The notes beneath the pieces were generated by a model, which was not told where the DNA came from, made no database searches, and was given only the letters and a program-made list of their open reading frames with translations. A stretch of DNA of 64,000 bases, taken from assembly GCA_949745755.1 (NCBI GenBank), contig CATJZL010000065.1, positions 1,185-65,184 of the forward strand, in the 5' to 3' direction. Both the position numbers and the translations under genes were made by a program. The stretch is from an uncultured Bacilli bacterium (GTDB lineage Bacteria > Bacillota_I > Bacilli_A > RF39 > UBA660). Every line of letters begins with the position of its first letter. Position 1 is the first letter of the stretch. Of the stretch, positions 5,121 to 40,556 are shown one piece after another.

Positions 5121-6641
5121 TTACATATTTTTTACGTCAATACGCATAAATAAAGGTTCTATCTCTCCAAGATCATAAGAATTATCTTTTTGATAAGAGA
5201 AACACTCAACAAAATTATTTAGTTGTTTCTGTATTTTTGAAGATGTATCAGGTATATAAGGACTTAAAAATAGGGAACAAACACGAATACCTTCAAGTAA
5301 ATTATAAAGAACAGTCTCAAGCCTTTCCTTAGAACTATCATCTTTAGCTAGTAACCATGGAGTAGTATCATCAATGTATTTATTACTACTACGAACAACA
5401 TTCATAATCTCACTAATAGCATTACTAACTTCTAAATTATCCATTCTCTCCTCAACTCTCTTATCAATGGAATCAATTTGAGCAATATAAGAACAATCCA
5501 CATCTTCAACTTTTCCTCTATTAACAATCTTCCCACTAAAATATTTATATCCCATAGAAAGTGTTCGATTAACTAAATTCCCTAACACATTCGCAAGATC
5601 ACTATTAATTCTTTCTATTAACAACTCACGTGTAATATTACCATCATCAGCAAAAGGAATTTCATGAAGCAAATAATAACGAACAGCATCTACACCAAAT
5701 TCTTCCACTAAAGTATCAGCATAAAGTACATTACCCTTACTTTTACTCATCTTATCATCATTCATTAAAAGCCAAGGATGACCAAATACTTTTTTTGGAA
5801 GTTCTAAACCAAGAGACCATAAAAAGCAAGGCCAATAAATAGAATGAAAACGAATTATATCTTTTCCAATCAAATGTACATCACAAGGCCAATATTTCTT
5901 AAATTCATCTGTAACATCATCTACATCATAACCAATATTAGTAATATAATTAGTTAAAGCATCGAGCCAAACATAAACTACATGCCCTTCATCAAAATCA
6001 ACTGGTATCCCCCAAGTAAAAGAAGTCCTAGAAACACATAAATCCTGTAAACCTGGTTTAATAAAATTATTAAGCATTTCATTTTTTCTAGAAACAGGTT
6101 GTATAAAATCAGGATGACTTTCTATATAATCTTCCAATTTTTTCTGATACTTAGATAATCGAAAAAAATAGGCCTCTTCTAAAGCTTCATGAACTTCTCG
6201 ACCACAATCTGGACATTTTCCATCGATAAGTTGTGACTCTGTCCAAAAAGATTCACATGGAGTACAATAAAGTCCTTTATATTCCCCTTTATAAATATCT
6301 CCATTATCATACATCTTTTTAAAAATATGTTGTACTACCCTTTCATGATTTACATCCGTAGTTCGAACAAACTTATCATAACTAGTATTCATAACATCCC
6401 AAATTCTTTGAATTTCACTTGAAATATCATCAACAAATTCCTTAGGTTGAATTCCATTTTCTCTTGCTTTTATCTCGATCTTCTCACCATGTTCATCTGT
6501 ACCAGTTTGAAAATAAACATCATATCCCTTTAATCTTTTATATCTTGCAATACTATCAGCAAGCACAATTTCATAAGTATTTCCAATATGTGGTTTAGCA
6601 GATGCATAAGCAATCGCTGTACTAATATAAAATTTTTCCAT
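5121..6641 (-). CDS. metG: Methionyl-tRNA synthetase, short form without the C-terminal tRNA-binding domain.
   Basis: A 506-aa ORF with a HIGH-type motif (AKPHIGN), a KMSKS motif and CPDCG zinc knuckles. Confidence 0.9.
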   Translation of the reverse strand: MEKFYISTAIAYASAKPHIGNTYEIVLADSIARYKRLKGYDVYFQTGTDEHGEKIEIKARENGIQPKEFVDDISSEIQRIWDVMNTSYDKFVRTTDVNHERVVQHIFKKMYDNGDIYKGEYKGLYCTPCESFWTESQLIDGKCPDCGREVHEALEEAYFFRLSKYQKKLEDYIESHPDFIQPVSRKNEMLNNFIKPGLQDLCVSRTSFTWGIPVDFDEGHVVYVWLDALTNYITNIGYDVDDVTDEFKKYWPCDVHLIGKDIIRFHSIYWPCFLWSLGLELPKKVFGHPWLLMNDDKMSKSKGNVLYADTLVEEFGVDAVRYYLLHEIPFADDGNITRELLIERINSDLANVLGNLVNRTLSMGYKYFSGKIVNRGKVEDVDCSYIAQIDSIDKRVEERMDNLEVSNAISEIMNVVRSSNKYIDDTTPWLLAKDDSSKERLETVLYNLLEGIRVCSLFLSPYIPDTSSKIQKQLNNFVECFSYQKDNSYDLGEIEPLFMRIDVKNM

Positions 6642-6644
6642 TAT

Positions 6645-6900
6645 AAATCACTCCTTATCACAAAAAAAGCTATCATAATATAAGGACGAATAATTCCGCG
6701 ATACCACCTTATTTTATAATAACTAAATTATACACTCAAATAGTTAACGCCTATCTACGATTACATTTACATATCAACATAATAGTTCAAAAGCCATAAT
6801 CATTATATAGTAATATTTCTCTCACACCATAAAGAAACTCTCTTAAATTACAAATATAATAACCTCTTTCTCATCACATTTGATATAAACAGAATAACAT
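6645..6900 (-). promoter_or_regulatory. T-box riboswitch leader upstream of metG.
   Basis: A 267-bp untranslated leader. Its minus-strand sequence contains AGGUGGUAUCGCGGAA (plus strand about 6703..6720), which matches the T-box consensus AGGGUGGNACCGCGG. A U-tract lies just before the metG ribosome-binding site. Confidence 0.5.
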
Positions 6901-6908
6901 AAAATCAC

Positions 6909-7433
6909 TTATTCCTCAATATATTTAACAAAAATATCTAAAATCAAATTTAAAAAAACCTTATCCATCTCATGAACTTCATCATCTCCAAAAAATACAA
7001 CCCCCCCAACTACATCACCATTTGTAATCATACTAGAAAAAATAAAATGACTATTTATTTCTTTTTTATCAGTTAAAGAAAGCATTGTATTATTAACATA
7101 TTCCTTTTTCCTCTCCTCCATAAAATGATAAATATCATTAGAAATATTTTTACCTACAAAAGACTCTATATCTCCCCCAGCACCACATATAATCTTATCT
7201 CTATCACATATTAATATATTTTTTGCAGTAAGAACACTAATTTTATCAATAAATATTTTAAAAACATCACGAATATCCTCTAAAGTAGAATATTTCTTTA
7301 AAATAATATTCTCATTACTAATATTAATCTCTAAAGGATCACCATCCTTTATTCTTAAAGTTTTTCGAATTTCCTTTGGAATAACTATTCGCCCTAAATC
7401 ATCTATTCTTCTTACTATACCTGTTGTATTCAT
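6909..7433 (-). CDS. spoVT: Stage V sporulation protein T: AbrB/MazE-type N-terminal DNA-binding domain plus a GAF-like C-terminal domain.
   Basis: A 174-aa ORF. Its N-terminus, MNTTGIVRRIDDLGRIVIPKEIRKTLRIKDGDPLEI, closely matches the SpoVT/AbrB swapped-hairpin domain. The length and the mfd-proximal position match B. subtilis spoVT. Confidence 0.75.
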   Translation of the reverse strand: MNTTGIVRRIDDLGRIVIPKEIRKTLRIKDGDPLEINISNENIILKKYSTLEDIRDVFKIFIDKISVLTAKNILICDRDKIICGAGGDIESFVGKNISNDIYHFMEERKKEYVNNTMLSLTDKKEINSHFIFSSMITNGDVVGGVVFFGDDEVHEMDKVFLNLILDIFVKYIEE

Positions 7434-7589: not shown

Positions 7590-8228
7590 TTACTTAATCT
7601 TTACAAACTTTTTCATATGTTCAATATTAAAATTTCTCAAATCTTCCATATGAGAATACATAGCAAGAATAGAAAACGTATTTTCAATATTATGTTCACT
7701 TAAACAATCTCTTTTTGTTAAAGGAGAAAAAACATACTCATTTTCATACATTGCAAAATAATTTAATATTTCATTCTTTGAACTCAAAAGAATATTCTTT
7801 TTATAGATAAAACCTCTATCCAAAATTTTTTTACCAGAACGAACGGGTTTACCCGTTGACTGAAAAAAAGTCAACTCTTCATCTAAATATTGCTGTAAAA
7901 AAGAAATCGCTTGATCAAGCATGACTATAGTTTTAGGTCCCATAGACTTAATTTTCAATTTATCATCATAAGTTAAAGTAACATAATCATAAACATAAGA
8001 AAAAAAATCACAAACACGATGATCCCCAATACCTACTATAGGTAAATAAGACATAGGTATATCTTCCAATAAAGAAAAAATATCACTACAAATAACATCT
8101 TCCCTGTTTAAACATGTATGAATATAAGCACGTATATCTTTAACCTTAGAATGATTATTTATAATATAAAGTAATGCATTTAACTCATTGTTACTAAGTC
8201 CATCTATAAACTCTTTTATATTTTCCAT
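7590..8228 (-). CDS. Hypothetical protein of 212 aa, with no transmembrane segment and no recognised domain.
   Basis: A long ORF 21 bp downstream of the preceding gene, with an AAGGA ribosome-binding site. Codon usage and composition match neighbouring genes. No family recognised. Confidence 0.55.
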   Translation of the reverse strand: MENIKEFIDGLSNNELNALLYIINNHSKVKDIRAYIHTCLNREDVICSDIFSLLEDIPMSYLPIVGIGDHRVCDFFSYVYDYVTLTYDDKLKIKSMGPKTIVMLDQAISFLQQYLDEELTFFQSTGKPVRSGKKILDRGFIYKKNILLSSKNEILNYFAMYENEYVFSPLTKRDCLSEHNIENTFSILAMYSHMEDLRNFNIEHMKKFVKIK

Positions 8229-8249: not shown

Positions 8250-8891
8250 TTATAAATTATTAATTCTTGAATTCATCTTAGTAAAAATATATCTTTCCCC
8301 CTGTTCTTTAACCCCATTAATCAAAGTTGTATCCTTAACCAGTATCTTAAGATTGATATTTTCCATAAATTGTTTTTGATAAGTAATTCTAAAATATTTT
8401 GATAATTCTTCATATATATCCTGAAAACAACTCTCATCAAAAAAAAGAACAGATATATTTTCTATCAAATACTTAGAAATATCCTCGCTGACAACTTTTT
8501 TTAAATGACTATTAATTTTTTTATTAATAACAGACAACTGTTTTTTAGTAATCCTAATAATATCATATTCTTTTTTAGGAGAAAAAGACTCTATATCCTG
8601 AATTAAGTTATTTACTCGAAAATCTTGAATAAACAAAATATCATTACAAATAGCAGTCCTATATTCTAACAATAATTCATCTACTATTTCTGTATTTAAT
8701 ACTATATCTTTCTTTTTAGCAACAGAAAGAAATTTATTTTTAATAACATCCATAGAATCAAGAGGTGGTTTTTTAATTAAACTCATTATATCATCCTCAA
8801 TCAAAGAAATGGTATTATTACGAATAATCTCACTTACTGCCAAAATATAATTATTAAAAGATTGTCTTTTTATTTCATCTAATTCTGTCAT
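8250..8891 (-). CDS. Hypothetical protein of 213 aa with no recognised domain, first gene of a two-gene operon.
   Basis: A long ORF. A possible TTGACT-N17-TATTCT promoter lies in the 105-bp gap after mfd. No family recognised. Confidence 0.55.
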   Translation of the reverse strand: MTELDEIKRQSFNNYILAVSEIIRNNTISLIEDDIMSLIKKPPLDSMDVIKNKFLSVAKKKDIVLNTEIVDELLLEYRTAICNDILFIQDFRVNNLIQDIESFSPKKEYDIIRITKKQLSVINKKINSHLKKVVSEDISKYLIENISVLFFDESCFQDIYEELSKYFRITYQKQFMENINLKILVKDTTLINGVKEQGERYIFTKMNSRINNL

Positions 8892-19189: not shown

Positions 19190-19216
19190 AAATAAAAAAG
19201 CTAGTCTCTCTTAGCT
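19190..19216 (-). terminator. Weak intrinsic terminator overlapping the tadA stop codon.
   Basis: The minus strand reads AGCUAAGAGAGACUAGCU (5-bp stem) followed by a U-tract. Confidence 0.3.
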
Positions 19217-19647
19217 CTAAAAAAACTATTCATCAATTTTTCTATTTCAAATGAAAAATATCCACAGCTTACCTCTACTGCAGGATTTGAAAAATCTTTT
19301 TCTAATATTGAATAAATAATAGTCTTATTATTTTGGTCTCTATTACTTAACCCATAATATAAGTGGGAAATTCTAGATTGCTTTATCGCACTTGCACACA
19401 TAGGACAAGGCTCCAAAGTAACATATATATCACAACCATTTAATCTCCAATTATTCAATTTCAAAGAAGCCTCCTCTATAACATTTAATTCAGCATGCTT
19501 AGTAACCAACTGATCATGCTCCTTAGTATTAAAAGACTTAGCAATTACAATTCCATTTTTCACTATTACAGCACCAACCGGAACCTCATCTAATTCTAAA
19601 GCTTTTTTAGCCTCCTCTATAGCCATAAGCATAAATCTTTCTTCCAT
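19201..19647 (-). CDS. tadA: tRNA-specific adenosine deaminase.
   Basis: A 148-aa ORF with the CDA zinc motifs HAE...PCPMC and a GGAGGA ribosome-binding site. Confidence 0.85.
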   Translation of the reverse strand: MEERFMLMAIEEAKKALELDEVPVGAVIVKNGIVIAKSFNTKEHDQLVTKHAELNVIEEASLKLNNWRLNGCDIYVTLEPCPMCASAIKQSRISHLYYGLSNRDQNNKTIIYSILEKDFSNPAVEVSCGYFSFEIEKLMNSFFRAKRD

Positions 19648-19659
19648 ATTTCCTCCAAA

Positions 19660-19740
19660 AAAAAGTGCACATAAGTTAAAGTGTTAAGGCTGCTATCTTC
19701 CAATCCTGACCTGTTTCCACACAACTTATTGCACAAATAT
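19660..19740 (-). ncRNA. ffs: Small (Bacillus/4.5S-type minimal) signal recognition particle RNA.
   Basis: The minus strand reads GUGCAAUAAGUUGUGUGGAAACAGGUCAGGAUUGGAAGAUAGCAGCCUUAACACUUUAACUUAUGUGCAC. The core CAGGUCAGG-AUUGGAAGAUAGCAGCC matches the conserved SRP RNA domain IV (CAGGUCAGGUCCGGAAGGAAGCAGCC). The 5' and 3' ends pair, and a U8 tract follows. Its position next to tadA and dnaX matches B. subtilis scr. Confidence 0.65.
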
Positions 19741-23084: not shown

Positions 23085-25046
23085 CTAAATATCTAAATTT
23101 TCAGCATAAACTGCATTTTCTTCAATAAATTCACGACGAGGAGCCACCTCTTCACCCATTAATTTACTAAAAACATCATCAGCAGCTATAGCATCTTCTA
23201 CCGTAATCTGTCTTAATACTCTCTTTTCTATATCCATAGTTGTCTCATTAAGTTCTTCTGCATCCATCTCACCAAGACCTTTCATACGACTAACATCTCT
23301 CTTAGTGTTTTCAGGAAGTGTAGCAAGATACTCATCTCTTTCTTCATCTGTTAATACATATTTGATAGTCTTCCCATGCTTTATACAATAAAGTGGTGGT
23401 TGAGCAGCATAGACATGACCAGCCTCTACAATAGGCTTAAAGAAACGATAAAACAAAGTAAGTAATAAAACTCTTATATGGCTTCCATCCACATCAGCAT
23501 CCGTCATAATAATAATTTTATTATATCTTAATTTTTCAAGATTAAACTCTTCACCAATCCCTGTTCCAAAAGCAGTAATAATAGTACGAATTTCCTCATT
23601 AGATAAAGCTCGATCAAGTCGTGCCTTTTCAACATTCAATATTTTTCCACGAAGAGGAAGAATCGCTTGACGTATACTATCTCGTCCCTTTATAGCAGAT
23701 CCTCCAGCAGAGTCTCCTTCGACTAAGAAAATCTCACACTCTTTAGGATCCTTACTCTTACAATCAGATAATTTTCCATAAAAGTTTGTAACATCAAGAT
23801 CACCTTTACGACGAGTTAACTCTCTCGCTTTTTTCGCCGCAACACGAGCACGTGAAGCAGTCATACTCTTATCAATAATGATCTTCGCCTGATCAGGATT
23901 CTCCATTAAAAATCGCTCAAAAGTATCACTAAAAATTTTATCAGCAATTCCACGAACCTCACTATTACCAAGTTTTGTCTTAGTTTGTCCCTCAAATTGA
24001 GGATTAGGATGTTTAATAGATATAATCATAGTAATACCTTCACGAACATCATCACCTGTTAAAGAATCATCTTTATCCTTTAATATTCCATTATTAACAG
24101 CATACTTATTAAGTATACGAGTAAGAGCACGCCTTACACCATCTTCATGTGTTCCTCCTTCAGGAGTAGTTATATTATTAACAAAAGAATAAATAGAAGA
24201 ATTATACGTTTCATTATATTGTAAAGCAACTTCCAAAGAAATCCCTTTCTCTTCACCCATAACATCAATAATGGTATCATGAATAGGACTCTTCGTTTTA
24301 TTAAGCATTTCAACATATTCACGTATTCCACCTTCATAATAAAAAGAATCATCCTTCTCTACATCACGTAAATCATAAAGCGTAATACGAAGTCCTCTAT
24401 TCAAAAAAGCAAGTTCACGAAGTCTTGTACTAAGTATTTCATAATCATAAATAGTCGTATCAGTAAATATATCTGGATCTGGTTTAAAGGTAACTGTAGT
24501 TCCTGTTCGATCATCATCACATTCATCAATAATCTTAAGCTCATCTTCAGGTTTTCCACCATTACTATATCTTTGAAAATAAACCTTACTATTTTTATAA
24601 ACACGAACTTCTAGCCATTCACTAAGAGCATTAACAACACTGGCACCAACACCATGAAGTCCACCTGATACTTTATATCCTCCTCCTCCAAATTTTCCAC
24701 CTGCATGAAGTACAGTATAAACAGTTTCTACAGTACTCTTATGTGTTTTCGGATGAATATCAACAGGAATACCCCTTCCATCATCCTTAACTGTAATTGT
24801 ATTACCTTGATTAATGGTAACCTCGATATGCTTACAATATCCAGCTAAAGCCTCATCAATCGCATTATCAACAATTTCCCACACTAAATGATGAAGCCCC
24901 CGCACACTAGTAGAACCAATATACATACCAGGTCTTTTTCGAACAGCCTCTAATCCTTCTAAAACTTGAATCGCTGAAGAATCATATGCTCCTTCTACTT
25001 TTTCTTCCATATCCATAAAATCCCTACTTTCTTGTAACATTTCCAT
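23085..25046 (-). CDS. gyrB: DNA gyrase subunit B.
   Basis: A 653-aa ORF with a GHKL ATPase domain (GLHHLV, GGLHGVG), a Toprim domain (EGDSAGG) and a [10 protein letters not shown] motif. Confidence 0.95.
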
Positions 25047-26133
25047 CTTTCACTTCAAAAATATATGCATCTTTTAAATACTTTTTTTGAATACTTTTTA
25101 AATCTGTCGTAGTAATAACACTTTGAATATCTTGACTTACAAATTTCAATAACTTATTACGCTTTTCTATATCAAGTTCGCTAAAAATATCATCAAACAA
25201 TAATACTGGCTTCGTACCACAAACTCTCTCAAATATAAAAATCTCAGAAAGCTTATAACAAATAACAGCAAGCTTCTGTTGCCCTTGTGAACCATATTGC
25301 TTTAAATCTCTTTTCGTTAATACAAAATTCATATCATCACGATGTGGTCCAAATAAAGTCATTCCATAATTAAGTTCTTTACGATAATTTTTACTAAAAA
25401 TAGACAATAAATTGCTCTTTAATATATCCTCTTCGTAGCTATCTATTATAATATTAGGAACATATTCTATATACAAATCTCCACTTCCTACTATATCTTT
25501 ATAAATACTTCCTATATTCTCATTAATAAAATCTATATATTCTTTCCTCATATTATAAATAATAACAGCCTTTTCTATCAATTTTTCAGTAAGAATATCC
25601 AAATATTTCTTATCAGCAATACTGTTCGTAAATAAAACTTTTAAGTATTCATTTCTAGTCTTTAAAATCTTATTATATTCATTATAAGTATTCAAATACT
25701 TTTTAGATAATTGACTAAGTTGTATGTTTAAAACACCTCTTCTGACACTAGGAGAAGACTTAATAATTTCTAAATCATCTGGAAAAAAAGAAATAACATA
25801 TAAATTAGAAATATAATCAGATAATCTTTTAATTTGACTTTTATTAACAAATAACTTCTTAGTGTTGTTTTCAAAAATAACAAGAAGTTCATTAAGAAGT
25901 TTATCATTTCTCACTTTACATTTTAAAGAAGATTTGACTTTTCCAAACTGAATAATCTGCTCTTCAAATGTATTACGACTAGATTTAGTTAAAGCAAGAA
26001 CAAGTATAGACTCTAAAAAATTCGTCTTTCCTTGAGCATTATTACCTATAAAAAGATTCATAGTTTTATTAAGAGAAATATCCAACTTATTATAATTCCT
26101 AAAATTTACTAAATTAATCTTAGTTATTTCCAT
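25024..26133 (-). CDS. recF: DNA replication and repair protein RecF.
   Basis: A 369-aa ORF with a Walker A motif (GNNAQGKTN) and an SMC-like signature. It overlaps the gyrB start. Confidence 0.9.
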
Positions 26134-26297
26134 TATAAATCACAAAAACCATTCATTTAATCACCTTTCCCCTAGTTCAGTATTCCTATACATACGAATA
26201 TATTATATCAAAAAAATAGTATCTATGCACAAAAAATCACTCATTTTATAAATATTTTTCCATAAAAAAAGATAACTAAATATCCTTACAAATAAAG

Positions 26298-26525
26298 TTA
26301 TCTTCTTTTATAACGAACTTCTTCATTTTCATTTGCATAATCAGATTGTCTTTCCATCACTTCCAAATATTCATCAGGAGTCAACATTTTCTCTCTAGTA
26401 TGTTTATAACCACATACAGTACATATTCTACTCTCTATCTTGACATATACCTTTGGTGCATGGACACCAAAGGTATGATGCTCTATAACTCTAAAACTTA
26501 CACTTGAATATTCTTCTTTTAGCAA
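26298..26525 (-). CDS. Questionable small ORF with no ATG start, possibly a gene remnant.
   Basis: The frame is open for about 100 codons but its only candidate start is a TTG with no convincing ribosome-binding site. It contains a single CxxC (CTVCGY). It is not similar to the S4-domain YaaA normally found at this position. Confidence 0.2.
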   Translation of the reverse strand: MLKEEYSSVSFRVIEHHTFGVHAPKVYVKIESRICTVCGYKHTREKMLTPDEYLEVMERQSDYANENEEVRYKRR

Positions 26526-26733
26526 ACCACTAGTCCAATCACCCTTCTTTAAATTTAAATAAGATTCTACTTCAGATAGTTCCTCTACACTATAAACCTA
26601 TTTTATAAGAACATTCTTAGAAAAAAATTCCTCCCATCCATCATATTTTAACATCTTAATTAAATAAATCATAACTATATAATACACAAACTTATAGATA
26701 CTGTAAATACATATTTAAAAAACACATAATACT

Positions 26734-27201
26734 TTACATTACCTTATTTACATCAGATCTTCTCTCATTTAATAAATGGACTAAACGAGTCGAACGATAA
26801 ATCTGATTTTCTACCACTCGATAAGAGATAGGTACAACAAGCTCCATATCATTTTCAAAAATAATTCTAGTAGTATTAAATTGTTCAGCAATATAACTCT
26901 TAATTTTATTAACAGCTATCCAAATACACCTTTTATCAGTTGGACTCATAGTAGGAAAAAAAACAATATTTAAATTATCCTGAATAACAATAGGTAATTT
27001 ATAATTAGCACCAATAATAGCCTTAGCCCCTGCTCTCCTACCCTCATAACTACTGCCAAAATATTTGCAACTATGATCTAAAATATCATAACTAGAACAA
27101 GGTATAATATAATCTTGAGAATCCTCAAGTATTTTTGTTTTTCCATCTTCCATAGATATAACAGCAAGAGTTCCTTTATTAATTTCATATTCATTTTTCA
27201 T
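26734..27201 (-). CDS. comK: ComK-family competence transcription factor.
   Basis: A 155-aa ORF. SCKYFGSSYEGRRAGAKA, IVFFPTMSPTDKRCIWIA and ELVVPISYRVVENQIYRST align with the ComK signature blocks SCRFFGSSYAGRKAG, IFLFPTLSSTRPQCGWIS and ELPISYNSFENQVYRT. Confidence 0.7.
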   Translation of the reverse strand: MKNEYEINKGTLAVISMEDGKTKILEDSQDYIIPCSSYDILDHSCKYFGSSYEGRRAGAKAIIGANYKLPIVIQDNLNIVFFPTMSPTDKRCIWIAVNKIKSYIAEQFNTTRIIFENDMELVVPISYRVVENQIYRSTRLVHLLNERRSDVNKVM

Positions 27202-27216
27202 AATCTTATCCCCCCA

Positions 27217-27243
27217 AGAAAACGACTATCTCTCCGTTTTCTT
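27217..27243 (-). promoter_or_regulatory. A 9-bp-stem hairpin immediately 5' of the comK ribosome-binding site.
   Basis: The minus strand reads AAGAAAACG-gagagauagu-CGUUUUCUU followed by GGGGGGAUAAGAUUAUG. It has no U-tract, so it is unlikely to be a terminator. It may act as an RNA stabiliser or translational control element for comK. Confidence 0.3.
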
Positions 27244-27369
27244 GAAAGAATTATAACACATACAACAGTCGAAAAAGAACGAATTTTGTCATAAAAATAA
27301 GAAAATTAAACACACTTTTTATATGGAAAAAATGTTTTAATAATATACTTTTAAGAAAAAAAAGAACAG

Positions 27370-28500
27370 TTAGTATGTTCTAATAGGCAAAACAAGTTGT
27401 GTAAGAGTAGTATCTTCATTAGACTTTAATAAAATAGGCTTTATCTCTCCTACATAATGAATTTCAATTGTATCAGTAGAAAAACTTTTTAAAGCTTCCA
27501 TCATATATCTAGAACTAAAAGAAATCTTTATATCTTCACTAGAACTTTTTGTAATTTTCATTTTTTCTTCTACTCTACCTATTTCTATAGAAGAACTCTT
27601 CAAAATAAGTGTATCATCATTAGTCTCTAAAGTAACTATATTTTTTTCCTTATCACTAGTTAAAATACTAGCCCGATCAATAACATTATAAAAAGTATTT
27701 AGATCTGCTGTAAGGATCAAAGTAGCCTCTTCTGGCATTAGATTAGCAGTATTAGGATAAGTACCATTAATAAGCCTAGACTGAAATAAAATATTTTTAT
27801 ATTTAAATAATACCTTGTTATTAAAGATATGTAATTCAACAATAGCAGCCTCATCTTCATCCATAATCCTTATAAACTCTACAATATTATGACTAGGAAT
27901 AACAATATTATAAATATCCTCACTTTCTTTTTCTAAAGTAATAATTTTACGTGCCAAACGATAACTATCAGTAGAATTACATTCAAGAATATTTCCCGCT
28001 ATATTAAAATTAATTCCAGTAAGAACAGGCTTTGTTTCCTCATTACTAGATGCAAAAGCAGTCTGATTGACTATATCTTTAAATATAGAACTATTAATAT
28101 CAATCTTTTTCTTACTTTCTTCCAAATTAATAGTAGGATATTCTTTTTCATCAATTCCATTCAAATTAAATTCACTATTTTCAGTATAAATAAGTATCTT
28201 GAATTCATCAATTACTTCTATATTAATATATTTATCAGGAAGTTTTCTTACAATATCTGAAATATATTTACCTTGAACAATGATATTTCCTTCTTCTTCC
28301 ACTAAAAAATCCTCTTCAGAAGCCCCTTCAATTGTAGTCTGAATAGTTATATCATTATCACTAGCAGTAAGAGTCAACCTATTTTTCTTTAACTCAAATT
28401 TAATACCTGCAAGTACGGGTATCAAATTTTTAGTAGAAATAGCCTTAGACACTTTATTTATAGCTTCTTGTAATATATCTTTTTTGATTCTTAATTTCAT
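27370..28500 (-). CDS. dnaN: DNA polymerase III beta sliding clamp.
   Basis: A 376-aa three-domain clamp starting MKLRIKKDILQEAINKVSKAI. Confidence 0.9.
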   Translation of the reverse strand: MKLRIKKDILQEAINKVSKAISTKNLIPVLAGIKFELKKNRLTLTASDNDITIQTTIEGASEEDFLVEEEGNIIVQGKYISDIVRKLPDKYINIEVIDEFKILIYTENSEFNLNGIDEKEYPTINLEESKKKIDINSSIFKDIVNQTAFASSNEETKPVLTGINFNIAGNILECNSTDSYRLARKIITLEKESEDIYNIVIPSHNIVEFIRIMDEDEAAIVELHIFNNKVLFKYKNILFQSRLINGTYPNTANLMPEEATLILTADLNTFYNVIDRASILTSDKEKNIVTLETNDDTLILKSSSIEIGRVEEKMKITKSSSEDIKISFSSRYMMEALKSFSTDTIEIHYVGEIKPILLKSNEDTTLTQLVLPIRTY

Positions 28501-28647: not shown

Positions 28648-30015
28648 CTACCCCACATCTTTTTTCAATTTTTCTATAATATTAGCTAAATCGGTATTAA
28701 CTTGTATTTCCTTTTCAATCTTTGAAATAGAATGCATAACAGTAGTATGATCCTTGCCACCAAATTCTGTTCCTATTTTAGGTAGAGATTCACTAGTTAA
28801 CTTCCTACACAAATACATAGCAATTTGTCTTGGAAAAGCAATATTACTACTACGCTTTTTACTTCGAATATCTTCCACACTTATTTGAAAATATTCAGCA
28901 ACCACTTTTTGAATTCTATGAACATCATTTTTTTCACTAATACCTTTACTAATAAAGTCTTTTAAAGCCTCAATAGCAAGATTTAATGTAATAGAAGTTC
29001 CTCCCATTATAGCAGAATAAGCAACAAGTCTTGTAATGGAGCCCTCAAGTTGTCGAACATCATTTCCCATATTAGATGCAATATATTCAATTACATCATC
29101 AGGAATTTCCTTTTCAAAATTACCTGCTAAAATTTTCCTACGAATAATTTCCACTCTAAGATTAAAATCAGGTGGATAAATGTTAACAGTAAGACCCCAA
29201 CAAAATCTTGTCCGTAAACGTTCCTCTAAAAGTTTTAAATCATCAGGAGAACGATCAGAAGAAATAATAATTTGTTTAGAATCACTATATAATGTATTAA
29301 AAGTATGAAAAAATTCTTGTTGTGTTTGTGTGGCACCACCTAAAAACTGTATGTCATCAATAATTAAAACATCAATATTTCTATATTTATCCTTAAAAAA
29401 ATCAATAAAGTTAAAATTACTACCAGTACTATCCCTTTTATTAATACCTATAAAATCTTGAATAAATTGATCACTGGTAACATAAATAACACGTTTATTA
29501 GAATTTTCCACAATATAATTACCTATAGCATGCATCAGATGTGTTTTTCCAAGACCACTATTTCCATAAATAAATAAAGGATTATACATTTTTCCAGGAT
29601 TTTCAGCGACAGATAAAGCTGCAGCCTGTGCAAATTTATTCGTATTTCCAACAATAAAATTATCAAAAGAGTATTTACTCTCCAAATTATTATTTATTTT
29701 ATTGCTTTTTTCCTGAACAGTTGCCTTTTTTTGTTCCTGCTCTTTTATTTGAAGCTCAATCTCTTTCACTTCATCTTCAAGTAAAAATTCAATTTCACAA
29801 TGATTTCCACAAATATCACTTAAAATATCTTCAATTTTTTCTCCATAATTATCCATTAAATGACTTTTATGAATAGACATAGGAACAGTAATAATCGCTT
29901 TACCATCAATTAATGAATAAAGTTTAGTTTCCCTAAACCATGTTTCAAAAGCGAGAGATGATAGTTCAACTTTTATTTGTTGTAAAAGTTTGGTCCAAAG
30001 GACCTCTGTATTCAT
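28648..30015 (-). CDS. dnaA: Chromosomal replication initiator DnaA.
   Basis: AAA+ core (GNSGLGKTHL) and a C-terminal DNA-binding helix. The true start is probably the ATG at 30015 (MNTEVLWTKLL, with GGGAG 9 nt upstream) rather than the ORF-track start at 30108, which would run into the DnaA-box cluster. Confidence 0.93.
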   Translation of the reverse strand: MNTEVLWTKLLQQIKVELSSLAFETWFRETKLYSLIDGKAIITVPMSIHKSHLMDNYGEKIEDILSDICGNHCEIEFLLEDEVKEIELQIKEQEQKKATVQEKSNKINNNLESKYSFDNFIVGNTNKFAQAAALSVAENPGKMYNPLFIYGNSGLGKTHLMHAIGNYIVENSNKRVIYVTSDQFIQDFIGINKRDSTGSNFNFIDFFKDKYRNIDVLIIDDIQFLGGATQTQQEFFHTFNTLYSDSKQIIISSDRSPDDLKLLEERLRTRFCWGLTVNIYPPDFNLRVEIIRRKILAGNFEKEIPDDVIEYIASNMGNDVRQLEGSITRLVAYSAIMGGTSITLNLAIEALKDFISKGISEKNDVHRIQKVVAEYFQISVEDIRSKKRSSNIAFPRQIAMYLCRKLTSESLPKIGTEFGGKDHTTVMHSISKIEKEIQVNTDLANIIEKLKKDVG

Positions 30016-37191: not shown

Positions 37192-38751
37192 ATGAATGAA
37201 AATCAAGAAGTAGTGTTTTTGCATTTAGATGATATTATACCAAATAGATTTCAACCTCGTGAAGTTTTTGACGAAAAAGCCTTAAAAGAATTAGCTATAT
37301 CAATAAAGGAGCATGGAGTAATCCAACCAATTATTGTTAGAAAAATAAATGAAAGTAAATATGAAATAATAGCAGGAGAAAGAAGATATAAAGCATCAGC
37401 TTTAGCAGGACTTACCCAAATACCTGCAATTATTAGGAATTTGGACGATAAAGAAGCTGCAAAAGTAGCTCTTTTAGAAAATCTACAAAGAAGAAATCTA
37501 AATCCAATAGAAGAAGCAAGAACTTATCAAAAAATAATAGAACTAGATCAAATGACACAAGAAGAATTAGCAAAAACAATGGGAAAAAGTCAGTCAGCAG
37601 TTGCGAATAAACTAAGATTACTCTCTTTAACGGAAGAAGTTCAAAAATCACTATTAAAGGAAGAAATATCAGAAAGACATGCCAGAACCTTACTAAATTT
37701 ACAAGATGCAGAAGAGCAAGTTGAAATGCTAAAAAAAGTAATAAAACAAAAAATGACAGTAAGACAATTAGAAAGTGAAATCAAGGAAAAAACAATAGTA
37801 CAAGATAAAAAAGATGAAATAAAAGATGAACAAGATTTAGCATCAATGATAAATCCAACACCTGTTCCTCTACCAAAAGAAAATAATAAAATAAATAACT
37901 CTTTTGAAACAAAGAAATCTCCTAATTTGATGGAAAACTTTATGAATAAGGAAAATGATATTCCACCCCTACCCTCTCTTCCTAAATTATCAGAAGATAT
38001 TATAAATTATGGAGAAATAAACAATGAAGAGGATGAGGAAGTAGAAGAAAATTCTTTAGATTTAAATGGAAATAATAATACATTGTTGACAAATCCAGTA
38101 AATTTAATAGATTTAAAAAACAATACTAAAGATATAGCAAATATCAATGATACAATAGAACCTATAAAAAAAGAAAACTCAGACCTAGACTCCTTATTAA
38201 ATGTAAAACCAAATTTAATGTCCCTACAAACAGAAGAAAAAGAAGATAAAAAATTAAGCCCAGCAGAAGAAGCATTAAAAGAAAGTGAAGAAAAAAATTA
38301 TGAAAACAAAGAAGACTATTTCAAGGCACCAAATTTAATGTCTATTGACTTACCAACTACAGGAATAACTCAAAAAGACAAATTAACAGATATGTTTTCA
38401 AATCCTACAACATCAAGCAATAGTCTAATAGATTTTGTAAAAAAACCAGCTACAAATCAAGAAAAGAAAGATTCATTAACAAATATGAATCAAACATTAT
38501 TCCACAAAAAGAATGATGAGGAAGACTCAAATGTTCCTTCAAAAAAATCTTTAGGAAGCTTCCTTATGAATGAAAATTTAAAAAATAATGCAAAGAACAA
38601 AGAGGAATATAATATTCAACAAATGGTTAATGAGATACGAAAAACATTAAAAGAATTAGAATCACATGGCGCTAAAATTGACACAGATGAAATGAATTTT
38701 GAAAACCAATATCAAATATTAATAAAAATAGATAAAGACAACAACTATTAG
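37192..38751 (+). CDS. noc: ParB/Noc-like nucleoid occlusion protein with a roughly 300-aa low-complexity C-terminal extension.
   Basis: The N-terminal 200 aa form a ParB N-domain (GERRYKAS) plus an HTH (QEELAKTMGKSQSAVANKLRLL). The rest is rich in Asn, Lys and Glu, with three PNLM(S/E) repeats. The rsmG-noc-soj-spo0J order is conserved. Confidence 0.7.
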   Translation: MNENQEVVFLHLDDIIPNRFQPREVFDEKALKELAISIKEHGVIQPIIVRKINESKYEIIAGERRYKASALAGLTQIPAIIRNLDDKEAAKVALLENLQRRNLNPIEEARTYQKIIELDQMTQEELAKTMGKSQSAVANKLRLLSLTEEVQKSLLKEEISERHARTLLNLQDAEEQVEMLKKVIKQKMTVRQLESEIKEKTIVQDKKDEIKDEQDLASMINPTPVPLPKENNKINNSFETKKSPNLMENFMNKENDIPPLPSLPKLSEDIINYGEINNEEDEEVEENSLDLNGNNNTLLTNPVNLIDLKNNTKDIANINDTIEPIKKENSDLDSLLNVKPNLMSLQTEEKEDKKLSPAEEALKESEEKNYENKEDYFKAPNLMSIDLPTTGITQKDKLTDMFSNPTTSSNSLIDFVKKPATNQEKKDSLTNMNQTLFHKKNDEEDSNVPSKKSLGSFLMNENLKNNAKNKEEYNIQQMVNEIRKTLKELESHGAKIDTDEMNFENQYQILIKIDKDNNY

Positions 38752-38890
38752 GCATAATAAAACTTATGCCTTTTATGATAGAATTTAAATAAAAATAAGA
38801 TTAAGTGACAAAAAGGGACAATTTTGTTTTCAAAAAAACAAATATTTGATACAATATATCTGGTTAGAACAAAAAGAAAAAGGTGATAAG

Positions 38891-39679
38891 ATGGGAAAAA
38901 CTATAGCATTAGTCAATCAAAAAGGTGGAGTAGGAAAAACTACAACCAGCATCAATCTATCTGCATCCCTTGCAGTATTAGGTAAAAAAGTATTATTAAT
39001 AGATTTAGACCCTCAAGGAAATACAACAACAGGAGTAGGAATAAATAAAGCTGACATAGAAAGAAGTATATATGATGTTTTAACAGGAACATGTAAAATG
39101 GAAGAGGCAGTTATACAAACAAAATTTAAGAAATTATCTATTATGCCTGCAACAATCAATCTAGCAGGTCTTGATATAGAATTATTAGAAAAAAGTCAAC
39201 ATGAGCCAGGATATCAAAAACAAAATCAGTTAAAAATAACCCTAGATACAATAAGAGAAGACTATGACTATATAATAATTGATTGCCCACCCTCTCTTGG
39301 ATTGATTACAACAAATGCCCTAACAGCATCAGACTCAGTAATCATTCCAGTTCAATGTGAATTTTTTGCTTTAGAAGGAATTATGCAATTATTAAATACA
39401 ATTATGCTTGCTCAAAAATCCCTAAATCCAACATTACAAATAGAGGGAGTTTTGCTAACAATGTTAGACTCTAGAACCAACTTAGGTTTTGAAGTAGTAG
39501 ACGATATTAGAAAATTTTTTAAAGAGAAAGTATACAATACAATTATTCCTAGATTAATAAGATTAACAGAAGCACCATCACATGGTGAGCCAATAATAGC
39601 CTATGATCCAAAAAGTAGAGGTTCAGAAGCTTATTTAAATCTTGCAAAGGAAGTGATTGAAAGAAATGGAAAACAGTAA
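38891..39679 (+). CDS. soj: ParA/Soj chromosome partitioning ATPase.
   Basis: Deviant Walker A motif KGGVGKTT. The start is chosen at MGKTIAL, which has an AAGGTGA ribosome-binding site. Confidence 0.85.
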   Translation: MGKTIALVNQKGGVGKTTTSINLSASLAVLGKKVLLIDLDPQGNTTTGVGINKADIERSIYDVLTGTCKMEEAVIQTKFKKLSIMPATINLAGLDIELLEKSQHEPGYQKQNQLKITLDTIREDYDYIIIDCPPSLGLITTNALTASDSVIIPVQCEFFALEGIMQLLNTIMLAQKSLNPTLQIEGVLLTMLDSRTNLGFEVVDDIRKFFKEKVYNTIIPRLIRLTEAPSHGEPIIAYDPKSRGSEAYLNLAKEVIERNGKQ

Positions 39680-40556
39680 TATAAAAAGAAAAGCATTAGG
39701 AAAAGGACTAGAAGAACTATTTAATAGTGAACCAATCGATTATACAAAAGTAGAAGAAAAAATAATTGAAGAAACACCAAAAGAAGAAATCAAGAATATT
39801 CCATTAAAAGATTTAAGAAGCAATCCATATCAACCGAGAAAAGTATTTGACGAACAAAAATTAGAAGAATTAGCAGCATCAATAAAAGAACATGGAGTAT
39901 TTCAACCAATCATTGCAAAAAAAAGTATTAAAGGCTATGACATAATAGCAGGAGAACGAAGAGTAAAAGCTTCTCTTTTAGCAGGATTGGAAGAAATTCC
40001 AACAATTATAAAAGACTTTACAGATACAGAAATGATGGAAATAGCTCTTTTAGAAAATCTACAAAGAGAAGATTTAACAGCAATAGAAGAAGCAAATGCT
40101 TATAAAAACTTATTAGAAAATTTAAAAATAACACAAGAAGAATTAGCAACTAGATTAGGAAAAAGCAGATCCTATATAACAAATACAATAGGACTTTTAA
40201 ATCTTCCAATTGAAACTCAAAATCTTATAAATGAAAAAAAAATATCTATGGGACATGCAAAAGTATTAAGTAAATTAGATAATGCTTATCAAATAAAAGA
40301 ATTAACTGATAAAATAATAACAGAAGGATTAAGCGTTAGAGCATTAGAAGATATAACAGGAGAAAATACAGAATATGAAAGAAGAAATAAAGTTCACAAA
40401 AAAGAAAAAACAGAGAATCCTTATAAATATATAGAAGAAGTATTAAATGATCATTTAGGTACAAAAGTAAAAATTAAAACAAATAAAATAGAAATCACTT
40501 TTACAAATACAAATGACTTAAATAGATTATTAGAAATAATGCACCTAGATAATTAA
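39657..40556 (+). CDS. spo0J: ParB/Spo0J.
   Basis: A 299-aa ORF with a ParB box (GERRVKAS), an HTH and a C-terminal dimerisation region. It overlaps the soj stop. Confidence 0.85.
   Translation: MKEMENSNIKRKALGKGLEELFNSEPIDYTKVEEKIIEETPKEEIKNIPLKDLRSNPYQPRKVFDEQKLEELAASIKEHGVFQPIIAKKSIKGYDIIAGERRVKASLLAGLEEIPTIIKDFTDTEMMEIALLENLQREDLTAIEEANAYKNLLENLKITQEELATRLGKSRSYITNTIGLLNLPIETQNLINEKKISMGHAKVLSKLDNAYQIKELTDKIITEGLSVRALEDITGENTEYERRNKVHKKEKTENPYKYIEEVLNDHLGTKVKIKTNKIEITFTNTNDLNRLLEIMHLDN

Follow-up and report, generated by a model that had tools for sequence, protein, structure and literature searches.

The Firmicute origin block runs dnaA-dnaN-yaaA-recF-remB-gyrB-gyrA, with yaaA (rlbA) encoding an S4-domain protein, and comK of Bacillus subtilis, the gene for the transcription factor ComK, master activator of the K-state (competence), lies ~1.1 Mb away from the origin. 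The bacteria of RF39 and its kin abound in the gut and have small genomes; none has been cultured, and to our knowledge nothing is known about gene exchange in them. Here, we analyze a 64,000-nt stretch of DNA (the window) from one genome of this group, an uncultured Bacilli bacterium (contig CATJZL010000065.1 of assembly GCA_949745755.1), in which dnaA, dnaN, recF, gyrB, and gyrA keep the Firmicute order, whereas yaaA and remB are both absent and comK, with a predicted promoter of its own, lies at the origin in the yaaA position, between dnaN and recF. Taken as a whole, the findings are best explained, at a probability that we put at roughly 0.6, by comK being a separate regulated transcription unit fixed beside the origin (oriC) and not a passenger of dnaA-dnaN.

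Two described systems bear on such a layout. In B. subtilis, Spo0A~P binds the comK promoter (PcomK) directly, at activating and repressing sites (PMC3297582), and the window comK promoter, judged by its motifs, probably takes a similar input. In Streptococcus pneumoniae, competence regulators (comCDE and comAB) likewise sit within a few kb or degrees of oriC and rise in copy number under replication stress, so the dosage concept is already established (PMC5034851). The pneumococcal proteins are unrelated (a two-component system, a peptide pheromone, and sigma X, versus ComK here), and the dosage effect was demonstrated there by experiment, whereas for the window comK we can only infer it. A switch of this type would also need a positive-feedback circuit to amplify a dosage change of less than 2-fold. 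In the mechanism that we propose, a Spo0A-type response regulator would switch the comK promoter, in parallel to Spo0A~P at PcomK; the transcript would start with a stem-loop that lends it stability without occluding the ribosome-binding site; ComK would then activate DNA-uptake and recombination genes; and the oriC-side position would give comK the highest copy number, which would increase further when forks stall or initiation is excessive, as in the case of pneumococcal comCDE. By this analogy, gene-dosage coupling of comK to replication is plausible. The genes and origin elements concerned are as follows.

28648-30015, minus strand: dnaA
28549-28566, minus strand: an adjoining pair of canonical DnaA boxes (TTTTCCACA) between dnaA and dnaN, read directly in the sequence
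27370-28500, minus strand: dnaN
26734-27201, minus strand: comK, intact, encoding 155 amino acids (aa), a member of the short (~150 aa) subfamily
25024-26133, minus strand: recF, with gyrB and gyrA also on the minus strand in the same block
from 30.4 kb, plus strand: rpmH-rnpA-yidC-jag-trmE-gidA

The comK product matches the Pfam family PF06338 over its full length (E=1.6e-41, 142 bits against a cut-off of 22.3, model positions 2-151 of 152), which confirms the original prediction of a true ComK homolog in this slot, and PF06338 is present in all of the 250+ homologs found. Against B. subtilis ComK, it is 38% identical over 146 aa (B. subtilis residues 12-157 of 192), and the two belong to the same family over the whole Pfam domain. 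Among 28 diverse ComK sequences, 25 alignment columns are invariant, and the conserved core (e.g., SC[KR][YF]FGSSY.GR, FFPT, and ENQ) falls in blocks that align to B. subtilis ComK, as had been proposed. The open reading frames (ORFs) are intact in all relatives, at 144-165 aa, and the ratio of nonsynonymous to synonymous substitution rates (dN/dS) between relatives is 0.03-0.25. These comparisons establish comK as an intact gene for a predicted ComK-family transcription factor under purifying selection; a solved structure was found for none of its relatives. The protein is shorter than the 192-aa B. subtilis ComK, ending at the position aligned to residue ~157, and lacks the C-terminal tail, which in B. 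subtilis carries the MecA-targeting FMLYPK motif; no LYP-type motif, the mark of the MecA/ClpCP-targeted degron that ComS relieves in B. subtilis, occurs in the window ComK sequence.

A species-level scan (one genome per species) recovered 320 genomes with a relative, and at all of the best 80 loci, which were the ones examined, the order dnaA-dnaN-comK-recF-gyrB-gyrA was found as far as the contigs reach. An independent scan of metagenome contigs placed both neighbors beside comK at 70 of 80 loci; nine further loci were truncated at one end, and one was too short for a decision. Among the ComK relatives reached, the most distant (~40% identity, n=5), obtained in a second search seeded with the most divergent homolog, still lie between dnaN and recF, so that no break in the synteny was found among them, and the same synteny holds in two genomes (L044 and L052) whose DnaN proteins are only 48% identical. 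The identical ComK protein was also found on many contigs, including the metagenome-assembled genomes GCA_949023515.1 and GCA_948645875.1, always with the same neighbors. Across ~165 loci, there was no clear exception to this position and no member of the short ComK subfamily outside the dnaN-recF slot. The clade includes Candidatus Faecimonas intestinavium, which belongs to GTDB order RF39, family CAG-611 (PMC8035907), while its other records are labelled uncultured Bacilli, Tenericutes, or Mycoplasmatota. Hence, the comK slot position is a trait of the whole lineage including RF39 and not peculiar to this genome, and the arrangement, first taken for an unusual one, is what relatives routinely carry. 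These data show that comK, as reconstructed from the sequences compared, took the yaaA-type dnaN-recF slot in the ancestor of a large uncultured AT-rich lineage of gut Bacilli (RF39 and kin) and has stayed there since. The dosage concept is known; for the clade-wide comK slot trait and its promoter architecture we found no paper describing either, in agreement with the original prediction on the former.

Some relatives have insertions of unrelated, lineage-specific genes to one or the other side of comK (L009 6643-7440, L012 6691-7482, L029 5203-5886, and L036 5302-5862), which encode a coiled-coil protein of 263-265 aa, an ORFan of 227 aa, and, on the opposite strand, a P-loop kinase-like protein. 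The dnaN-recF slot, tolerant of cargo, is a hot spot for insertions, and comK is always kept.

Such conservation need not reflect function, and a first point against our reading is that the position could be passive, as the dnaA-gyrA block is seldom rearranged. Passive retention is the main rival for the meaning of the comK position: comK would have landed once and been kept because the dnaA-dnaN-recF-gyrBA block hardly rearranges, its origin proximity having no regulatory meaning. The whole block is indeed collinear in all loci, the genes inserted beside comK without displacing it indicate a slot that tolerates neutral cargo, and all regulation seems to lie in comK's own promoter. Nothing direct opposes this explanation, but in ~165 loci the short ComK was not found elsewhere, even where DnaN has diverged to 48% identity, and a dosage mechanism has been proven for another origin-proximal competence switch (PMC5034851). 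We give it a substantial chance, somewhat short of even.

That comK lies beside the origin follows from several features. Further DnaA boxes (TTTTCCACA and variants) occur upstream of dnaA, and the GC skew has its sign change and minimum at 28-32 kb of the window (genome G+C 27%); together, the boxes and the skew flip place the chromosomal origin here. The start of comK is ~1.35 kb from the DnaA boxes in the dnaA-dnaN spacer and ~3 kb from those upstream of dnaA, i.e., within the few kb of oriC that mark a pneumococcal-type switch. As the original prediction had it, S4/yaaA is missing: the precomputed Pfam calls include no such product in the slot or in window 1 to ~57 kb, nor was S4/yaaA found among the extra slot genes of some relatives. 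No remB was found in the slot or in the annotated window from 1 to ~57 kb.

The case for separate regulation comes from 74 species whose dnaN-comK spacers were aligned; the elements of the window map onto this alignment as follows.

27287-27293, minus strand: TATGACA, first of three direct half-sites in 10-bp phase, together a degenerate copy of the clade boxes
27277-27283, minus strand: TTCGTTC, second half-site
27267-27273, minus strand: TTCGACT, third half-site
27250-27258, minus strand: extended -10 element of comK (TGTTATAAT), from the alignment columns
27213-27246, minus strand: 5'-leader hairpin, CAAGAAAACG (27235-27244) paired with CGTTTTCTTG (27215-27224)
27209-27215, minus strand: strong Shine-Dalgarno sequence (GGGGGGA), separated from the comK ATG by 7 nt

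The extended -10 has the form TG-n-TAtnnT (TG 95%/89%, TA invariant, last T 89%) and stands 8 bases after the boxes; no -35 hexamer was found 16-18 bp from it, and because of this a generic promoter scan missed it. Over the missing -35, centered near -27, -37, and -47, lie the boxes, with the clade consensus TTCGACA-N3-TTCGACA and often a third in-phase (G/T)ACA half-site before it. At most 3 of 14 mismatches to this consensus were found in 50/74 species, as compared with 0.6% of dinucleotide shuffles, and at most 2 of 14 in 27/74, as compared with 0.03%. The spacer is always 3 bp, with 27 species at that length versus 0-2 for each other spacer from 0 to 8, and a position weight matrix of the boxes has its top match in the window at comK and few sites elsewhere in ~0.8 Mb of origin-region sequence. 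The distance of 21 bp from box 2 to the -10 recalls the spoIIG and spoIIE promoters. Further, TTCGACA reads on the opposite strand as TGTCGAA, the 0A box of Spo0A (PMC3485338), two 0A boxes 3 bp apart constitute a footprinted Spo0A site (PMC2731898), and this tandem arrangement is found across the clade. Spo0A promoters such as those of phage phi29/Nf A2c, abrB, and B. subtilis PcomK share the same 7-bp core, on the opposite strand, in two copies 3 bp apart that overlap the core promoter; the comK boxes are putative counterparts of these, and may activate or repress. These alignments show a conserved predicted promoter private to comK that bears 0A-type tandem boxes, and the putative boxes suggest that it may be under Spo0A-type control.

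The TTCGACA repeats might instead be sites of ComK itself, serving positive autoregulation, or of a response regulator other than Spo0A. In B. subtilis, ComK activates its own promoter (PMC3297582), the repeats recur at a period of one helical turn and have A/T-rich spacers between them, and in the roughly 1 Mb of origin-region sequence scanned the motif hardly occurs outside PcomK. However, the consensus matches the 0A box exactly and has the 3-bp spacing documented for it, direct repeats are well suited to binding by response-regulator dimers, and there is no fit to the AAAA-N5-TTTT K-boxes; in its extended -10, its tandem boxes over the -35 region, and its lack of a K-box, the promoter is unlike that of B. 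subtilis. We therefore consider ComK or another regulator as the owner of these sites doubtful, and Spo0A-type control the better reading of the boxes.

Between this promoter and comK, the original prediction had placed a hairpin with a 9-bp stem at the ribosome-binding site; the hairpin is real and abuts the G-run, but its stem is a perfect one of 10 bp, with a 10-nt loop. It folds at a free energy (dG) of -13.4 kcal/mol (z=-3.9; 0/200 shuffles fold as well) and begins ~6 nt past the -10, hence near +1 of the predicted transcript. Stems of at least seven Watson-Crick pairs just 5' of the ribosome-binding site occur in 57% of species versus 8.5% of shuffles. In a 54-sequence alignment of the 7-pair core, 94% of cells are paired and 24 double-sided changes are seen versus 6.2 in shuffles (0/500 reach this number), one pair alternating between A-U (36 sequences) and G-C (12), while a shift of register lowers pairing to 31-59%. 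The loop varies from 3 to 14 nt across species, and such variation together with the covariation argues for an RNA structure and not a dimeric DNA operator. The pattern GAAAAC-N(3-16)-GTTTTC is seen a single time in the window, where 0.11 would be expected, and, in the loci, almost only at the comK leader; no known RNA family of the Rfam type was found for it. The leader thus contains a covarying 5' hairpin, as these predicted pairings show. Downstream, AGGGGG or GGGGGA is present in 65/75 species, with AGGGGG(A) 3-5 nt past the stem-loop and the ATG after another 7-9 nt, and in a short comK transcript the ribosome-binding site is predicted by folding to be 95% unpaired. Since the hairpin sits at the 5' end of the transcript with the ribosome-binding site free, it would act as a 5'-terminal mRNA stabilizer and not as a translational block.

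The GAAAAC...GTTTTC element might also serve as a DNA operator or as a translational riboregulator. Its stem is well conserved in sequence too, most species having TGAAAAC/GTTTTCA, and a longer 18-bp helix in this species (dG -20.1, z -5.4) could sequester the ribosome-binding site in read-through RNA. Across 56 species, shuffled flanks do just as well as the native 5' flank in such sequestration (p=0.59), so that the 18-bp helix was rejected as a clade-wide insulator and appears peculiar to this and a few other species. In addition, a loop of 3-14 nt is ill-suited to a dimeric operator, AU pairs have changed to GC in a compensatory manner, and a sub-clade of ~17 species lacks the hairpin. We regard an operator or riboregulator as unlikely, in favor of the stabilizer. 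In that sub-clade, which includes Ca. Faecimonas, the hairpin is replaced by another conserved leader (AATTTCATGTTTAGGAGGGGGAA) with the boxes and extended -10 kept (L026, L032, L034, L036-L039, L047, L050, L051, L059-L061, L063, L064, L068, and L081).

The original prediction had embedded comK in the replication operon, its transcription tied to initiation, and two candidate terminators in the window bear on this claim.

27356-27381, minus strand: terminator-like hairpin AGAACA...TGTTCT followed by T8, straddling the dnaN stop codon
26264-26302, minus strand: terminator-like hairpin GATAACT...AGTTATC followed by T7 (dG -7.0), downstream of a small ORF next to comK

On this rival view, comK would be co-transcribed with dnaA-dnaN and follow initiation control through DnaA autoregulation. 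The two genes lie on the same strand with a gap of only 168 bp, the dnaN terminator is weak in this species, and about half of the species have no recognizable one. In several relatives, moreover, two inverted DnaA boxes lie just upstream of the comK promoter: there, the dnaN terminator-like hairpin is itself made of them (e.g., AAATATCCACAATTTTTGTGGATATTT followed by a T-run; L013, L032, L036, L037, L050, L066, and others), which puts DnaA-binding sites at that place. Against co-transcription, every species has the invariant extended -10 and regulator boxes before comK, the hairpin lies at ~+1, and hairpins with T-runs follow dnaN in 34/74 species; terminator-like hairpins also straddle the comK stop codon in at least 37/72. 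The comK repeats were considered as DnaA boxes and rejected, having G (74-84%) at the position where DnaA boxes need C (0-3%), whereas genuine boxes here read CCACA (TTTTCCACA). An operon member would have neither promoter nor terminator between itself and dnaN, and a promoter is predicted there in all 74 species, a terminator-like hairpin in 34 of them. Embedding in the replication operon thus finds no support, and we judge co-transcription quite improbable next to a comK transcribed from its own promoter.

At the far end of the gene, a hairpin similar to that at 26264-26302 (AATAGTTA...TAACTATTTTTT) lies directly at the comK stop in relatives; the window hairpin is probably the comK terminator, displaced by insertion of an ORFan. 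Its location past the small ORF suggests that the ORF region was inserted in the comK 3' end. The original prediction had singled out this ORF as start-less and as holding a single CxxC.

26298-26672, minus strand: ORFan frame of 124 codons with an in-frame TAG at 26598-26600 (codon 25)
26298-26525, minus strand: 75-aa ORF with a TTG start at 26525, the tail of the 124-codon frame, reported by gene callers

The ORF and its one CxxC (CTVCGY) are present, but a TTG start exists. The TAG, an ordinary stop codon in this window, is present in nine of nine independent assemblies. Seemingly intact database versions of 124 and 117 aa (P0121 and P0122; loci L086-L088) have Q at the TAG codon, and the 124-aa locus that was checked has TAG in its DNA; these proteins are an artefact of alternative-code gene calling on short contigs, which can make pseudogenes seem intact. 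No family match was found in Pfam, NCBIfam, or PHROGs, no full-length homolog among 1.84 billion representatives (exhaustive phmmer), and the small ORF is absent from every other species examined. A phage origin was considered and gave no match (phage tblastn; PHROGs). Most likely, the small ORF is an inert insertion, specific to this species, in the 3' region of comK: an ORFan with a fixed nonsense codon and not a conserved partner of comK.

On the other side of this insertion, recF has regulatory elements of its own.

26202-26210, minus strand: recF promoter with extended -10 TGATATAAT, invariant across species
26160-26195, minus strand: recF leader, nearly invariant, with a GUAU-AGGA-AUAC hairpin (4-bp stem, AGGA loop) at 26180-26191
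26133-26156, minus strand: recF mini-ORF of 7 codons, its stop overlapping the recF ATG

The ~60-nt leader (GTATGTATAGGAATACYGAAATAGGGGATAGGTGAT) is better conserved than the flanking proteins, occupies the same position in L006-L085, and has no Rfam match; in at least 53 of ~70 species, a 7-8-codon mini-ORF follows whose stop and the recF start overlap as ATGA, TTGA, or TAATG. Comparison across species thus shows recF with a separate predicted promoter and leader. In contrast to the Firmicute block, recF here keeps this upstream mini-ORF, to which it would be translationally coupled. As a speculation, the mini-ORF may be what remains of the lost yaaA, retained for the sake of translational coupling, or the leader may be regulatory.

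The recF elements also bear on whether this ComK still serves DNA uptake. A repurposed ComK-fold protein might regulate the recF-gyrBA repair and topology genes or replication instead, for which one could cite the strict linkage to dnaN and recF across deep divergence, the missing C-terminal ~35 residues of B. subtilis ComK, and the lack of a K-box. The recF promoter and leader, however, are invariant and constitutive-looking, with no 0A-type or K-box-like element, and the core ComK residues are invariant as well; we hold such repurposing to be very improbable and retain a competence regulator as the preferred reading.

We acknowledge that a number of further observations weigh against comK as a separately regulated, Spo0A-controlled unit. 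In the window species itself, the boxes are degenerate (4/14 mismatches) and the dnaN hairpin is weak (dG -4.0, z -0.5), and terminator-like signals occur in only about half of species; the comK transcription start, terminator function, and dnaN read-through are all predictions. No Spo0A-like sequence was found in the window or in the relatives' origin loci, which cover the origin region only, where one is not expected, so that the presence of Spo0A in this organism rests on the RF39 literature in general. In favor of a Spo0A-type input, this literature predicts that RF39 keeps sporulation genes; against it, the order has both sporulating and non-sporulating species (PMC10868615). No B. subtilis-type K-box (type I or II, at most one mismatch) was found near comK in the search that the original prediction had called for, a divergent box specificity being possible; the only match in the window is at chance level, inside dnaB, and no evidence of autoregulation was found. 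Finally, none of the late competence genes comG, comE, comF, dprA, and ssbB lies in the 64-kb window, and because of this a competence role for the window ComK is suggested by analogy from its family membership only.

Elsewhere in the window, two genes are associated with sporulation, one for an AbrB/SpoVT-type regulator with a SpoVT_C domain (6909-7433, minus strand) and one for a 96-aa Spore_GerQ protein (~52.7-53.1 kb, minus strand), which suggests that the organism keeps at least part of a sporulation program. Other features of the window are unrelated to comK: a T-box leader (Rfam RF00230, 93.9 bits) at 6679-6883 on the minus strand, upstream of a class-I aminoacyl-tRNA synthetase gene (5121-6641); a small bacterial signal recognition particle (SRP) RNA (RF00169) at 19659-19738 on the minus strand, between a deaminase gene (19201-19647) and gyrA; a ParB_N/HTH_ParB protein of unusual length (519 aa; 37192-38751, plus strand), located just before an ordinary parA-parB pair (38846-40556) in the vicinity of the origin; and two adjoining genes for ~212-aa proteins (8250-8891 and 7590-8228, minus strand), downstream of mfd, with no Pfam family on record.

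In the most far-reaching form of our reading, an order-level lineage (RF39 and kin) would have hard-wired ComK to the origin with tandem Spo0A boxes, uniting sporulation phosphorelay and dosage, with yaaA lost in the same event and a coupling stub left before recF. We offer this only tentatively, as a scenario with rather low odds; if true, these bacteria would have arrived by convergence, and with unrelated parts, at the pneumococcal design of comCDE at oriC. The comparative data supply concrete cis-elements, namely the tandem 0A-type boxes, the hairpin of the comK leader, and the leader and mini-ORF of recF. That comK is under strong purifying selection and fixed at oriC in all genomes examined suggests that a regulated competence program has been kept in these bacteria, and the layout would provide a second, independent case for an origin-placed competence switch as a sensor of replication stress, so far shown only in streptococci.

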